From Candidatus Poribacteria bacterium (GTDB taxonomy: Bacteria; Poribacteria; WGA-4E; WGA-3G), in the NCBI GenBank assembly GCA_965232545.1, contig OZ246979.1:5734077-5798076 (forward strand): a DNA stretch of 64,000 nt, in the 5' to 3' direction. Within the stretch, counting starts at the first letter, position 1; each line of letters opens with the position of its first letter. This document shows, piece after piece, positions 4,035-29,138 of the stretch. The position numbers were made by a program, and so were the translations under genes. Below the pieces are notes generated by a model. It was given only the letters and a program-made list of their open reading frames with translations, was not told the DNA's origin and did no database searches.

Positions 4035-5003
4035 ATGCAAGACCTCCAGGACTTGATAACACAGCAACCCTACACGAATCTCATCACTCCCAAACGGATT
4101 CTGTTTGCGGTTCTCGGTGTGATCGTCTTAGCCTGCTTAGCGACAAGTTTTTATATGGTCGAAGCAGACGAAATCGCTGTCGTCCTGATGTTCGGTAAAT
4201 CTGTCCGACAAGCCGAACCGGGACTCCATTTCAAATTACCCCTCGGTATTGAGAGAGCCATTAGCGTGCCCGTCCGGAAAGTCTTCAAAGAGGAATTCGG
4301 TTTTCGGACGCTGAGAGCCGGGGTTCGGACGCAGTATGACACCCGCGATTATGCCGACGAGTCTTTATTACTAACCGGTGATCTAAGCATCGCCGATGTC
4401 GAGTGGGTGGTCCAGTATAAGGTTAAAGATCCGAAAAATTTTCTGTTTTCTGTCAGAAATCCAAGACAGGCTTTACGCGACCTCTCGGAATCCGTGATGA
4501 GCCGGATCATTGGCGACAGGACTGTCACTGAAGTGCTAACCGTCGGGCGTATTGAGATCGCCGCGGAGGTTGAAAAACATCTGCAAGAATTACTGGATCT
4601 CTACCAGACCGGATTAGATGTCGCAACGGTAACCTTGCAGGATGTGAATCCACCAGAAGCCGTGAAGTCCGCCTTTAACGCCGTCAATGAGGCGAAGCAG
4701 GAGAAAGAACGGTTAATCAACAATGCATGGCGCGATTACAACCAATCTGTCCCGAAAGCCAAAGGTGTGGCGATACAGCGGATTTCGGAAGCACAGGGTT
4801 ACGCGCTGAAACGCGTTAACGAGGCGCAAGGCGATGCAGATCGGTTCAAATCGATTCGCACGGAATATCAAAAAGCGAAAGAGGTTACCCGGCGCCGACT
4901 CTATCTCGAAGCGATGCGAGAGGTGTTACCGCAGGTGAAAGAGATTTATATCATTGACGGTAACGCCACCGCACCTATCCCACTTTTGCAACTCAAGGAA
5001 TAA
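4035..5003 (+). CDS. hflK: FtsH protease modulator HflK (SPFH/band-7)
   Basis: N-terminal transmembrane segment plus an SPFH domain, immediately followed by hflC. Confidence 0.85.
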   Translation: MQDLQDLITQQPYTNLITPKRILFAVLGVIVLACLATSFYMVEADEIAVVLMFGKSVRQAEPGLHFKLPLGIERAISVPVRKVFKEEFGFRTLRAGVRTQYDTRDYADESLLLTGDLSIADVEWVVQYKVKDPKNFLFSVRNPRQALRDLSESVMSRIIGDRTVTEVLTVGRIEIAAEVEKHLQELLDLYQTGLDVATVTLQDVNPPEAVKSAFNAVNEAKQEKERLINNAWRDYNQSVPKAKGVAIQRISEAQGYALKRVNEAQGDADRFKSIRTEYQKAKEVTRRRLYLEAMREVLPQVKEIYIIDGNATAPIPLLQLKE

Positions 5004-21644: not shown

Positions 21645-21896
21645 ATGATGCGAAAAGTTGATTTGCAACAGCAGGCAGTTAGGTTAATCAGGCAGCTCTC
21701 TACCGAAAAACTCAAATCTGCTGTTGATTATCTCGTTTATCTTCAAGATGCAGAGACGCAAAGTGTCTCTTCTGATCACGAAATTCCATCACAAAATCTG
21801 GGAACGGCGATCCACGAAATGTTCAAACCTTTTGGCGGAGTGGAACTTGAGATACCCCCACGGGAACCGGCGCGAGAACCGCCTCGCTTTGACTAA
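21645..21896 (+). CDS. Putative antitoxin (VapB-like partner of the PIN toxin)
   Basis: 83 aa, 9 nt upstream of the PIN gene. Shares the motif LSTEKL..V.DYL with the 28454 ORF. Confidence 0.5.
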   Translation: MMRKVDLQQQAVRLIRQLSTEKLKSAVDYLVYLQDAETQSVSSDHEIPSQNLGTAIHEMFKPFGGVELEIPPREPAREPPRFD

Positions 21897-21905
21897 ATAC
21901 CAACC

Positions 21906-22328
21906 ATGATTGTTCTTGACACTAATGTCATCTCGGAACTCATGCGGGACAGTCCAGAACAGGCAGTTCTGGCTTGGTTTGGTACCCAGCCTGCCAGCAG
22001 CTTGTTCGTGACAACTGTCACCGAAGCGGAAATTTTGAGTGGTATAGCACTCTTACCTTATGGAAGGCGACGGCGCGGACTCTCGGAGGCTGCTGCTCGT
22101 GTATTTACTACGTTGTTCGCTGGACGCATCCTTGTTTTTGATAGTGATGCAGCGAACATTTACGCCGAGATTTTTGCTCAACGGCACGCAGCCGGTAGAC
22201 CGATAAGCCAAGCTGATTGTCAGATCGCCGCAATTGCTCGCTCCCGGGGGGCATCCCTCGCAACTCGAAATGTTACGGATTTTGAAGGGATTGAAGTTGA
22301 ACTTATCAATCCTTGGACACATCTCTAA
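21906..22328 (+). CDS. vapC: PIN-domain toxin VapC
   Basis: MIVLDTNVISEL N-terminus with the conserved Asp. 140 aa PIN fold. Confidence 0.75.
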   Translation: MIVLDTNVISELMRDSPEQAVLAWFGTQPASSLFVTTVTEAEILSGIALLPYGRRRRGLSEAAARVFTTLFAGRILVFDSDAANIYAEIFAQRHAAGRPISQADCQIAAIARSRGASLATRNVTDFEGIEVELINPWTHL

Positions 22329-22382: not shown

Positions 22383-23873
22383 ATGGAAAAACCAAACAAA
22401 ACGCTCTGGGGTGGACGTTTCAGCACGAGTCTCACCACAGGGACGATAGCCTTCACGCATTCCATTGAAGCCGATACCCGACTCATTGGATACGATATTT
22501 GGGGAAGCCAAGCGCATGCAATTATGCTCGCTCGGCAAGAAATTATCTCCGATGCCGACCTGCGCGAGATTTTGCGATGGCTCCAGAAAGCAGAAGCGGA
22601 TTTTCAGAACGGCGATTTTACCCTCGATCCGAATAAAGAGGACGTACACATGAACGTCGAATCGTATCTGATTGAGAACGCCGGACGCGAATTTGGTGGT
22701 AGACTCCACACCGCTCGTTCTCGCAACGATCAGGTCCTCGTAGACGCACACCTCTACATTCGGGATGAGATCCTCAATGTCCAGCGCGGTCTCTCCGAAC
22801 TCTGTGAAGCGTTCCTACATATCGCCAAAGAACATGCCGACACCGTCATGCCCGGCTACACACATACCCAACACGCGCAGCCCATTAGCCTCGGTTTCTG
22901 GGCGACGGCTTATGTCAGTATGTTCCTGCGGGATCAGAAGCGTCTGCAAGCTGCATATCGACTCGCCAATACGAACCCGCTCGGCGCGTGTGCCTTGGCT
23001 GGCACGACATTCCCAATTGATCGACACCTAACGACGAAACTGCTCGGTTTTGATGCACCACACGAACACGCTCTCGATGTCATCAGCAGTCGAGATTTCA
23101 TCGCTGAGACACTCTTTGCGGTGTCGCTTGTGATGGCAAACCTCTCGCGAATCAGCGAAGAAATTGTCTATTGGACGACCTACGAATTTGGGATGGCAGT
23201 GCTTGACGATGCCTATAGTTTCGGAAGCTCCATCATGCCACAGAAGAAGAACCCCGATATTGCGGAACTCACACGGGGTCGCACAGGGCGCGTCTATGGC
23301 GCATTGCTCGACCTCTTGACGAATCTCAAGGGCTTACCGATGGGCTACAATCGCGATTTTCAGGAGGATAAACCCCCGCTCTGGGAGGCGTTTGATGTTG
23401 TGAAAGCGTGCCTCGGTCTGCTACCCGAACTCCTCAGAACAACGGATTTCAAAACGGAACGCATGGCTGAATTGGCGAATGCGAACTTCGCAACGGCGAC
23501 GGAGTTAGCAAATTATCTCGTTAAAGAACATCAAATCAGTTTTCGGGAGTGCCACGAGATTGTCGGATGGCTCGTCGGCGAACTCGTGAAACAGGAAAAA
23601 ACGTTCGCCGATTGGGAACTCACACAAGAACTCTTGAAACGGCGAGAGATTGACATCCCTATTGAGCAACTCAAACGGATACTGGACGCGGAATCGGCAA
23701 TTCAGAATAACCAGAGCCTCGGCGGCACATCGCCGGCAGAAGTGCGTCGGATGATAGACGACTTTCAGGGACGACTTAATGAGATTGCGTCACATATTGA
23801 TGCTTGCCGGACCCAGATTGAGTCCGCACACCAAGAAACCCAGCGTATAGTTGATGATGTTTTGAGCAAATGA
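22383..23873 (+). CDS. argH: Argininosuccinate lyase
   Basis: Fumarate-lyase signature GSSIMPQKKNPD. Full-length ArgH similarity. Confidence 0.9.
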   Translation: MEKPNKTLWGGRFSTSLTTGTIAFTHSIEADTRLIGYDIWGSQAHAIMLARQEIISDADLREILRWLQKAEADFQNGDFTLDPNKEDVHMNVESYLIENAGREFGGRLHTARSRNDQVLVDAHLYIRDEILNVQRGLSELCEAFLHIAKEHADTVMPGYTHTQHAQPISLGFWATAYVSMFLRDQKRLQAAYRLANTNPLGACALAGTTFPIDRHLTTKLLGFDAPHEHALDVISSRDFIAETLFAVSLVMANLSRISEEIVYWTTYEFGMAVLDDAYSFGSSIMPQKKNPDIAELTRGRTGRVYGALLDLLTNLKGLPMGYNRDFQEDKPPLWEAFDVVKACLGLLPELLRTTDFKTERMAELANANFATATELANYLVKEHQISFRECHEIVGWLVGELVKQEKTFADWELTQELLKRREIDIPIEQLKRILDAESAIQNNQSLGGTSPAEVRRMIDDFQGRLNEIASHIDACRTQIESAHQETQRIVDDVLSK

Positions 23874-23910
23874 GTTAACGCGTTGTAATTCTATCTCAAA
23901 GGAGATTGCT

Positions 23911-24666
23911 GTGACACAAAATATGGCAAATTTGCCGCTTACAGACATGACACATGGGCAATTTCGGGACTGGATCCGTCGCATTGTGCAACACTCACTA
24001 TTTGCGGATCGTGAGCGACTCCTTGCATTGCTTGCGACAAAGGCTGATAGGGAAACACTGGCAGAGGCGTTCCGTGAATTTTTTGAAGATTACTACTATG
24101 ATGTGGCGTTTGAATTGGATCGTCATGAGGCATGCCTACTTTCAATTTTTAATTCTTGTGATACTTATCCCGCTTTGAGATGTCGTGTTGCAATTGTTGA
24201 AGGCAAGCGAAAGGCATCGCCTATGGGACGTGAAGTTCGGCGGACGGGTTCGTTCCTCCCGAGTGACCCGGTACCAGAGATAAAAGTGTCTGCTTTATCG
24301 AATCGTGCCTTTCAATCGTTTCTTCACACGCTGGTGAACTGTGAATTTTTTGCAGCGCGTGATAGAATAGTTAGGTTAATGAGTCGAGAGTCGACTGCTG
24401 CTTCAAAATTGTCTGCACATGAGAGAGCGGATACTGAGGATAGGCATTTATGGGAGACGGTTTACGAGTTTTTCGTGTGCCATTTGGAATTGGAACAGTT
24501 TCTTGAAGATTATGAATACGATCCGGACGAAGGATTAGAGGTGCATCCAGAAGTTGCTGAAGAGTTGGAACAAAGCATCGCGGATCATAAATCTGAGGGA
24601 GTTAAAGGCAGACCCCTCCAGGAGGTGGCAAAAGAGTTTGGGGTCACGCTGAAATGTACACATTGA
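23911..24666 (+). CDS. Hypothetical protein (251 aa) translationally coupled to a RelE/ParE toxin; possible atypical large antitoxin
   Basis: Its TGA stop overlaps the ATG of the toxin gene (TGATG), followed by a TGA TGA TAA run. No recognisable domain. C-terminus is RPLQEVAKEFGVTLKCTH. Confidence 0.4.
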   Translation: MTQNMANLPLTDMTHGQFRDWIRRIVQHSLFADRERLLALLATKADRETLAEAFREFFEDYYYDVAFELDRHEACLLSIFNSCDTYPALRCRVAIVEGKRKASPMGREVRRTGSFLPSDPVPEIKVSALSNRAFQSFLHTLVNCEFFAARDRIVRLMSRESTAASKLSAHERADTEDRHLWETVYEFFVCHLELEQFLEDYEYDPDEGLEVHPEVAEELEQSIADHKSEGVKGRPLQEVAKEFGVTLKCTH

Positions 24667-24911
24667 TGATAAAATCCCGCGCCGAATCGGATTTGCGCCG
24701 TTTGAGCCCCACGATTTACTCGCTAATATTCAGCAAACTGGAGCGATTGTGCCAGATTTGCGATGACTACCCGCATAAGGCATTGAAAGGTGAGTATAGA
24801 GGGAAGTTCAGTTTATCAGTTGCTAAAGACTATCGAATTCTCTATACCTTCGATAGGCGTTTCCGAGAGATCGTTGTTCACCGAGTTGGGCACCGTAGCA
24901 AGGTCTATTAG
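24666..24911 (+). CDS. Type II toxin RelE/ParE family
   Basis: MIKSRAESDLRRL...YRILYTFDRRFREIVVHRVGHR, the classic RelE/ParE C-terminal motif. Confidence 0.75.
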   Translation: MIKSRAESDLRRLSPTIYSLIFSKLERLCQICDDYPHKALKGEYRGKFSLSVAKDYRILYTFDRRFREIVVHRVGHRSKVY

Positions 24912-25004
24912 ACGTGTATAAAAGTCCAGTGTCCGTATACTTAGAAAAAACATAAGGAGATATGCAGTGGGTAAATCACAATCTGTCCTAAAGGAGATGA
25001 AAAG

Positions 25005-25718
25005 TTGGAAAGCAGACTAATCGTTGCATTGGATACCGACGATGGTGAGGAGATTGACTGGCTATCGGGAACGCTTATGGATACAGTCGCTTGGTTTAAA
25101 ATCGGCTTTCAGGCGTTCAGTGCTCTTGGAATGGAGGCTTTTCCATGGTTTGAACAAAACAGACATAAAGTCTTTGTTGACCTGAAGTTCCACGACATCC
25201 CCAACACAGTCGCACGCGATGTCGGTATGATGACGAAACATGGCGCAAATATGATTAACATGCACGCCTCTGGTGGACTTATAATGATGAAGACGGCAAG
25301 AGCAAGGGCAGACGAAGTATCTGCCGAACGCGATATTCCGCCGCCAATACTACTCGGCGTGACCATTCTGACAAGCATTGAAGAAACTAACTTTCGGTTA
25401 AGTTTTGCCTCAGCACGGACGCTTTCGGAACAGGTTGTCTATCTCGCACAGTTGGCGCAGGAAGCCGGACTGGACGGCGTTGTCGCATCACCGTTAGAAA
25501 TCGAGCCGATACGAAAAGCGTGTGGCGACAATTTTGTAATCGTCACGCCGGGCATTCGACCGAAATGGGCAGAAACTGGCGATCAGCGGCGTATCACCAC
25601 GCCAGCGGAGGCGATTCAACGAGGCGCGGATTATATTGTTGTTGGCAGACCTATTATTGAGGCAGAGGATCCGTTGGCAGCCGCCGAAACGATCCTTGAG
25701 GAGATGAAAGGGGCATAA
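25005..25718 (+). CDS. pyrF: Orotidine 5'-phosphate decarboxylase
   Basis: Motifs FVDLKFHDIPNTV and VVGRPI. Confidence 0.85.
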   Translation: MESRLIVALDTDDGEEIDWLSGTLMDTVAWFKIGFQAFSALGMEAFPWFEQNRHKVFVDLKFHDIPNTVARDVGMMTKHGANMINMHASGGLIMMKTARARADEVSAERDIPPPILLGVTILTSIEETNFRLSFASARTLSEQVVYLAQLAQEAGLDGVVASPLEIEPIRKACGDNFVIVTPGIRPKWAETGDQRRITTPAEAIQRGADYIVVGRPIIEAEDPLAAAETILEEMKGA

Positions 25719-28341: not shown

Positions 28342-28453
28342 ACAGGAATCTACACAAATCCGCGTCTAATAGCGGCGGCAGATCAAATAGGAACCCGCGA
28401 AAAATGTGGTAACGGAAACCTTAGTTGTCGTGGGTATATCACTTTGGAGCATC

Positions 28454-28732
28454 ATGAAGAACGTTGAACTTAAACAACAAGCGATTGCTTATATTGAGCG
28501 ACTTTCGACTGAAAAGCTTGAAGTCGTTCTTGACTACCTCGCTGCTCTTGAGAGTTCTGATCTTTGGGCGACTGAAGCGGAGTCGGAAGCACTAAAAAGT
28601 TCGGATAAGACGGAACCGCTCCTTGCATTGGCAGGGACGTTGGAATGTGACGAAGAAAATATCAGTGATCGCCACGATGAGTTGATCGGTGACGGGTTAC
28701 TGGCAGAATTATCGGGGCGTGTGCATGAATGA
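28454..28732 (+). CDS. Putative antitoxin (paralog of 21645-21896)
   Basis: MKNVELKQQAIAYIERLSTEKLEVVLDYL matches the 21645 protein's N-terminus. Stop overlaps the downstream PIN gene. Confidence 0.5.
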   Translation: MKNVELKQQAIAYIERLSTEKLEVVLDYLAALESSDLWATEAESEALKSSDKTEPLLALAGTLECDEENISDRHDELIGDGLLAELSGRVHE

Positions 28733-29138
28733 GGTCTTCGCCGATACCTCCGGATGGGCCTCTTTCCTTCGAGAGTAGGAACGCCATCATGTGAAGGCTG
28801 TTACCTTAATGACGCGGTGGGCAGCAGAAAATCGGCACGTTGTCACAACAAACTATGTGCTGGGTGAGCTCATCGCCCTCTGCGCGCGTTTGCGGATACC
28901 GCGTTCGAGAAGTGTTTCTTATATTCAGAGCATCCGCGCCGAGACTTGGGTCGAAATCGTACATATCGACGAGCGACTTGACGCACGAGCGTGGGAGTTA
29001 CTGGAAAACAGATTGGATAAGACGTGGAGCCTGGTTGACTGTGCAAGTTTTGTTGTCATGGAACACCGGGGCTTGACAGATGCGCTAACGACGGATCATC
29101 ACTTTGAACAAGCTGGCTTTGTCCGACTCCTTTCGTGA
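28725..29138 (+). pseudogene. VapC-like PIN toxin gene interrupted by an in-frame TAG at 28776-28778
   Basis: ATG at 28725 encodes MNEVFADTSGWASFLRE, a PIN N-terminus with the catalytic Asp. TAG follows, then the same frame continues ERHHVKAVTLMTR... to 29138. Confidence 0.55.

Follow-up and report, generated by a model that had tools for sequence, protein, structure and literature searches.

In the genome of a Candidatus Poribacteria bacterium we identified a chromosomal type II toxin-antitoxin (TA) pair, in which the gene of a RelE-type toxin of 85 amino acids (aa) overlaps with the gene of a protein of 251 aa directly upstream. The window analyzed here is the whole stretch of 64,000 nucleotides (nt) on contig OZ246979.1 (assembly GCA_965232545.1, positions 5,734,077 to 5,798,076). 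The 251-aa protein, called the partner in the following, is very probably the cognate antitoxin, which would neutralise RelE via its C-terminal tail. Profile comparisons relate this tail to a widespread family of small proteins encoded upstream of homologous toxins in other phyla. An earlier note on this DNA had described two open reading frames (ORFs), one at 23911-24666 and a RelE/ParE ORF with its end at 24911. Both are present, and they lie in different frames.

The assignment of the downstream ORF to the RelE/ParE superfamily is supported by profile scores above the curated cut-offs. The Pfam model PF05016 (ParE_toxin) matches with 32.1 bits (E 1.7e-7; cut-off 23) and the model TIGR02385 (RelE/StbE) with 29.5 bits (cut-off 27.9). 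Since the best Pfam model carries the name of ParE, a gyrase poison might be considered instead of an mRNA endonuclease. We regard this as very improbable, as PF05016 spans both kinds of toxin and the other evidence points to RelE. TIGR02385 is one such match. A profile of 13 toxins of the family, searched against the PDB, gave exclusively RelE/YoeB-type chains at E<=0.1 and no ParE; the matches include 2khe (1.9e-8), Rv2866/RelE2 (1.9e-7), YoeB and E. coli RelE (down to 2e-3). Among 53 distinct toxin copies the residues H41, R61, Y64, R81 and Y85 are invariant or almost so, and R61, R81 and Y85 align with the active-site region of RelE. In an hhalign comparison with an E. coli RelE sequence whose length matches 4fxe_D, K51, R61 and Y85 are paired with K52, R61 and Y87, while K54 is not conserved. 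The C-terminal HR..VY motif, together with the invariant R61 and Y85, likewise speaks against ParE. Solved mRNA interferases as structural relatives and basic and tyrosine residues at the active-site positions are what is expected of the RelE type. The 85-aa product is thus predicted to be an RelE-type mRNA interferase, presumably a ribosome-dependent one. RelE cuts mRNA in the ribosomal A site. The ratio of nonsynonymous to synonymous substitution rates (dN/dS) of the toxin gene is 0.12-0.16.

The first ATG of the toxin ORF is located at 24654, 12 nt upstream of a second ATG at 24666. The latter had been taken as the start codon in the earlier note, sharing its A with the stop codon TGA (24664-24666) of the partner gene. 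This ATG exists, but it is not likely to be the toxin start. Because the MYTL start at 24654 is kept, with an identical 13-nt overlap, in 30 related loci, because orthologues have Thr or Ile in place of the Met at 24666, and because the second residue of the 85-aa form is where the PDB alignments with RelE and YoeB chains begin, we place the gene at 24654-24911, with ATG 24654 as the more likely start. In other subfamilies the RelE start lies between -8 and +5 relative to the partner stop. Upstream of relE just a weak GGGG is found, whereas the partner gene has an AAGGAG. The overlap makes translational coupling of the two genes probable. Of the tight coupling proposed before, the overlapping genes and the probable coupling are retained, while the junction is formed by the 13-nt overlap and not by an ATGA at 24666. 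The run TGA-TGA-TAA is indeed found at 24664-24672 in the upstream frame, but it is not conserved in related loci. It is confined to the window copy (TGA CAA TAA in locus L002, TGC TGA TAA in L001) and is a side effect of the toxin codons. In comparisons with L002, L004, L005 and L009, the tail-coding segment 24511-24663 shows a synonymous divergence (dS) of 0.30-0.46. The remainder of the partner gene has values two to three times as high (0.8-1.1), and relE also lies above the tail segment (0.65-0.78). The low dS may reflect gene conversion or a constraint on the nucleotide sequence close to the coupling junction.

For the analysis of the linkage between both genes, relatives of the partner were collected by several searches. 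A word-indexed search gave 388 homologues of 184-266 aa. An exhaustive search of 1.84 billion representatives with a hidden Markov model (HMM) gave just 85 matches, the full-length ones falling into about ten clusters. The weaker matches include proteins with a length of 60-135 aa that belong to other lineages and cover the N-terminal helix and the tail only (e.g., MRVADLTVDELTKLIRETV...DPDEGLLLKPEVEQRLRKALEEAKSGKQKGIPLAEVAEKLGIDWE). Scanning a single genome of each species revealed 112 partner relatives, with up to three paralogues per genome (80 retrieved). Every full-length relative with a named source belongs to the Poribacteria, the closest ones to metagenome-assembled genomes of Candidatus Poribacteria, which are sponge symbionts. 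A word-indexed search with the toxin returned close relatives from Poribacteria only and was uninformative on partners outside the phylum.

The neighbourhoods of these genes were surveyed at 84 loci, two of which are duplicates. An intact RelE-like ORF (>=80 aa) with a start between -13 and +5 nt from the partner stop was found at 55 of the 82 non-duplicate loci. A truncated RelE is present at 6 loci and none at 23, several of the latter with remnants. The partner occurs in at least three contexts, between argH and pyrF (9/84), after recG (29) and between an AAA_15/DUF3696 ATPase gene and the type III restriction gene Res (about 14). Clustering of the flanking ORFs revealed the RelE gene as the sole neighbour common to all contexts and no third conserved component. 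In addition, partner and toxin have diversified together. Their identity matrices correlate with r = 0.79 for the body and r = 0.83 for the tail of the partner, values which 0 of 999 Mantel permutations reach. The pair therefore shows the organization of type II modules, i.e., adjacent and co-oriented genes with the antitoxin first, overlapping or abutting and inherited together. Homology of the large protein to an unrelated metabolic family without conserved linkage to RelE genes had been named as the finding that would speak against the pair; the linkage proved to be strongly conserved.

The partner is about three times larger than usual antitoxins and, as stated in the earlier note, contains no catalogued antitoxin domain. 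The Pfam scan gave no match at E<=1 and the NCBIfam scan noise only. PADLOC has no match for either protein. No sequence or fold relative was found in the PDB, where Foldseek gave no hit at E<=1e-3, and no helix-turn-helix (HTH), ribbon-helix-helix (RHH) or other DNA-binding fold was detected. Structure prediction and profile comparison had both been suggested as checks before, and the profile comparison showed the tail to be homologous to a family of small RelE partners. This family comprises 2,053 members (E<=1e-3), mostly of 71-81 aa and some of about 130 aa, from Gemmatimonadota, Chloroflexota, Bacillota and cyanobacteria. All members are annotated as hypothetical and are without a Pfam domain. 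Their consensus (alignments A4 and A6) is KVADLT.DEF..LVREVV...DPDEGLELR....EEL..SLA...AGGKT.PA.EVA..LGLTW. In hhalign the small-family profile matches the C-terminal half of the partner (residues 121-251) with a probability of 99.4% (E 7e-22). In the reverse search, the small-family HMM matches residues 195-246 with 43.7 bits (E 1.2e-15).

The genomic context of the small family agrees with this homology. Directly downstream of the small gene a RelE-like match was found at 69 of 80 metagenome loci, 53 of them full and 16 partial. Individual genes are followed by a PF05016 toxin of 86-89 aa at -1 to +7 nt or by RelE remnants. The paired toxins show 40-45% identity to the window toxin. The partner shares with the small family the N-terminal helix (DLT..F..L...V) and the DPDEGLE tail, both within a significant profile match, as well as the position upstream of a RelE-like gene. 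It does not consist of a single unit of about 75 residues. Because it is composed of two units plus inserted helices, it represents a derived architecture and not a typical member of the small family. Literature searches revealed no published description of the small family or of duplicated RelE antitoxins. The proposal of a novel antitoxin class was not supported, since the partner is a duplicated and insertion-expanded member of this widespread family. It is nevertheless distinctive in being threefold larger and duplicated with one repurposed tail, in having a compact body without a solved structural relative, and in its restriction to Poribacteria.

Two-unit tandem proteins were also observed outside the Poribacteria (P0249, 163 aa; P0257, 183 aa), and P0258, P0328 and others (130-132 aa) consist of one unit with a C-terminal extension. 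As tandem forms also occur outside the phylum, duplication of the antitoxin unit is recurrent. At L090 (1501-2808; also L091 and L092) the gene downstream of the small-family member P0253 (80 aa) encodes a RAMA-domain protein of 343 aa (PF18755) and not RelE, which may be a partner swap.

The partner itself is built of two repeats in tandem. The end-to-end alignment of residues 5-122 with residues 121-251 has a hhalign probability of 96-97% (E 1e-9 to 1e-10), and the helices match one to one. In the N-terminal unit the small-family HMM gives a weak match at residues 9-30. The segment that pairs with the C-terminal tail is residues 87-113, an arginine-rich pseudo-tail. In the AlphaFold 2 (AF2) model of the partner, with a mean predicted local distance difference test score (pLDDT) of 82.8 and a predicted template modelling score (pTM) of 0.74, the body is confidently folded. 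The pseudo-tail is modelled as two helices (87-99 and 104-110; pLDDT 86-94) packed against it. Between the N-terminal helix and the tail of the C-terminal unit, about 45-55 residues are inserted in the partner compared to the small family; residues 121-200 hold this helical insertion, which is missing from the 74-aa proteins. The tail helices 213-228 and 236-242 are of lower confidence (pLDDT about 64). The small unit is modelled as three helices that do not form a compact structure (pTM 0.32), and in its tail the helix-gap-helix arrangement of the window tail is seen again. Against orthologues at 65-70% identity the dN/dS is 0.17-0.30 in all segments of the partner, so that all three segments are under purifying selection. 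The coordinates of all features are listed in the following table.

Features of the toxin-antitoxin locus (positions within the window)
Feature	Position	Strand	Evidence and remarks
Shine-Dalgarno-like AAGGAG	23898-23903	+	Read from sequence; 7 nt ahead of the partner GTG
Partner (antitoxin) gene	23911-24666	+	ORF with GTG start, 251 aa, all-alpha; 388 full-length homologues
N-terminal repeat unit (residues 5-120)	23923-24270	+	Six helices including the folded-back pseudo-tail; hhalign
Arg-rich pseudo-tail of the N-terminal unit (residues 87-113)	24169-24249	+	Invariant R92, R100, R107, R111 (alignment A2)
C-terminal repeat unit, helical body (residues 121-200)	24271-24510	+	hhalign match to the small family
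Probable toxin-binding tail (residues 195-246)	24493-24648	+	DPDEGLE...G..PL.EVAKEFG; small-family HMM, hhalign
Overlap of the last partner codons and stop with the first toxin codons	24654-24666	+	Sequence; -13 offset in 30 loci
RelE-type toxin gene	24654-24911	+	85 aa (MYTLMIKS...HRSKVY); PF05016 and TIGR02385 above cut-off

Compared to RelBE-type modules, like E. coli RelBE, M. tuberculosis RelBE2 (Rv2865/Rv2866, PDB 3G5O) or YefM-YoeB, the pair shares the upstream antitoxin gene, the overlapping toxin gene for about 85 aa and a C-terminal antitoxin region as the presumed toxin-binding element. It differs in the length of the antitoxin (251 instead of 70-100 aa), in lacking the RHH or Phd/YefM domain for DNA binding and dimerisation, and in having no detectable promoter/operator region of its own. 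With the small family it has a homologous tail, homologous toxins, the gene order and the overlap or very short gap in common. In contrast to the small proteins, it is three times longer, contains a second, diverged copy of the N-terminal unit and has a compact body, where the small unit is extended. Short helical proteins paired with RelE/ParE toxins are also described by PF09720 (Unstab_antitox), TIGR02574 ("putative addiction module component"), NF048017, NF050811 and NF050107 (RelN), but the full 251-aa protein matches none of these models. Isolated tails, aligned to positions 25-54 of PF09720, gave matches in 7 of 20 cases (best E 3.9e-4), all below threshold, with a best score of 20.8 bits versus the cut-off of 23.3. 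Among 70 small-family members, sub-threshold matches were obtained to NF048017 (36), TIGR02574 (21), NF050811 (11) and RelN (6). As all scores stay below the cut-offs, neither the partner nor its tail can be counted as a member of the RelB-like, TIGR02574 or PF09720 families, and a relation to these models would be remote at best. The tail was also considered as a counterpart of the C-terminus of YefM or of RelF (Rv2865). This lead was rejected, as neither the tail nor the small family gave more than noise when compared with the PDB by phmmer and by profiles.

Based on these comparisons, the origin of the partner is most likely explained as follows. The ancestor would have been an antitoxin of about 75 aa with one N-terminal helix and the tail. 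Extra helices would have been inserted and the entire unit duplicated in tandem. The tail of the N-terminal copy would have turned into the arginine-rich segment folded back onto the compact helical body of about 190 residues, while the C-terminal copy would have kept the working tail. This tail (residues 195-246) is probably a flexible two-helix element which wraps around the toxin and blocks it, similar to the C-termini of RelB-like antitoxins. Transcription of the pair probably occurs by read-through from argH, and the 13-nt overlap probably couples the translation of relE to that of the partner gene.

Several observations weigh against a TA pair with the partner as antitoxin. The scores of all curated antitoxin models stay below the cut-offs, and the PDB contains neither a sequence nor a fold match to the 251-aa protein. 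The missing promoter/operator is unusual for type II modules, although an autoregulated promoter is typical of these but not obligatory. Furthermore, about a quarter of the family members are without an intact adjacent RelE. At L001 the partner is 94% identical and intact, while relE (4744-5001, orthologous to 24654-24911) is a pseudogene with a 1-nt deletion and an AGA-to-TGA stop, and the partner stop TGA is changed to TGC. The dN/dS of the partner against this strain is about 0.75, calculated from few substitutions. Because the partner persists where RelE was lost, in this strain as in the quarter of the family, it may have another role. This suggests that a partner without RelE is tolerated or useful alone, e.g., by neutralising paralogous toxins. 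This persistence and the absence of a catalogued antitoxin domain would also be expected if the 251-aa protein were an unrelated protein of Poribacteria beside which RelE had landed by chance, the real antitoxin being missing or located elsewhere. Such a chance arrangement is largely refuted and hardly credible, given the linkage in at least three unrelated contexts with a conserved overlap, the co-diversification of partner and toxin, and the homology of the tail to the upstream partners of homologous toxins in other phyla. Moreover, the 93 nt from the relE stop to the pyrF start leave no candidate for an alternative antitoxin ORF.

With the partner regarded as the antitoxin, the function of its helical body has to be considered. 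Canonical type II antitoxins join a DNA-binding domain to a toxin-binding tail, and the invariant residues R92, R100, R107 and R111 lie in a helix-loop-helix segment. The body, notably the arginine-rich segment 87-113, might thus bind an operator and autoregulate the pair, leaving toxin binding to the tail; this corresponds to the fused antitoxin-regulator of the earlier note. This proposal did not hold up well and we consider it unlikely. In addition to the lack of a DNA-binding fold in the partner, the small family of about 75 aa is also without a DNA-binding domain. The gap between the argH stop and the partner start measures 37 nt (10-45 nt in other contexts), holds a Shine-Dalgarno motif alone and leaves no intergenic region of operator size. 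A scan of 23400-25100 revealed neither a sigma-70-like promoter nor an intrinsic terminator on the + strand, and a promoter autoregulated through an antitoxin DNA-binding domain is accordingly not seen. Alternatively, the pair could be a defence-type TA system, in which the body acts as sensor or gate, e.g., of a stress signal or of a phage protein, and controls how RelE is released from the tail, leading to abortive infection and not to plain addiction. One paralogue group does lie between an ATPase of the AAA_15/DUF3696 type (NsnB/PDC-M55A-like) and the type III restriction Res, several partner paralogues occur per genome, and the body is lineage-specific and fast-evolving yet under purifying selection. 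However, the window copy and the largest group are found among housekeeping genes (argH-pyrF, recG) and PADLOC recognizes neither protein, which makes a defence function improbable to a similar degree. Somewhat less doubtful, but still speculative, is the more general idea that the body, with its about 190 residues, has a regulatory or sensory function (with a phage or stress trigger) or serves as an intramolecular pseudo-toxin-binding site, and that it thereby controls when the one remaining tail sets RelE free. If true, this would be a new "single-chain dimer" design of an antitoxin with 1:1 stoichiometry and switchable inhibition.

In the window the pair belongs to a co-directional gene array, consisting of a PhyH gene, a VapBC-like pair, argH (22383-23873), the partner gene, relE, pyrF (25005-25718) and a sulfatase gene. 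Almost every related locus has an AAAGGAG-type motif ahead of its partner gene. No further copies of the partner gene or relE are present within the window. The VapBC-like pair (21645-22328), located between the PhyH gene and argH, encodes an 83-aa protein without Pfam match and a 140-aa PIN-domain protein (PF01850, E 2e-15), so that argH of the window has TA modules on either side. As argH directly follows the PhyH gene in L001 and L002, this pair is a strain-specific insertion. A second VapBC-like pair (28406-29138) encodes a 108-aa protein without Pfam match and a 115-aa PIN-domain protein (PF01850, E 1.5e-6).

Two groups of partner paralogues show a different surrounding. At L065 (1282-7071; also L059, L061, L070, L071, L078, L081 and L083) a defence-island-like array was found, with the AAA_15/DUF3696 ATPase (PADLOC NsnB/PDC-M55A-like, E 1e-50 to 1e-53), a 323-aa protein without matches, the partner and a Res subunit of 795 aa (REase_III, E 9e-147). 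The partner is accompanied by RelE at some of these loci, while at several others RelE was cleanly lost. At L003 and L021 (2872-6892) small ORFs (145, 111 and 117-126 aa) lie upstream of P0064, a paralogue without RelE. The 111-aa ORF resembles a HigB/RelE-type killer protein by eye only. Downstream of P0064, four small ORFs and then a ThiF-family gene are located.

The general picture of type II systems is changed neither by the small family nor by its expansion in Poribacteria. For annotation, the family of RelE partners is perhaps the more useful result. More than 2,000 small proteins from several phyla are located consistently upstream of RelE-type toxins and are modelled in neither Pfam-A nor NCBIfam. 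As these databases contain no model for the family, its modules are annotated as orphan toxins beside hypothetical proteins. In the Poribacteria, an extended antitoxin of 75 residues was turned into a folded protein of 250 residues by insertion and tandem duplication, with one tail kept and one repurposed. The pair is therefore a natural test case for the evolution of stoichiometry, stability and regulation of antitoxins.
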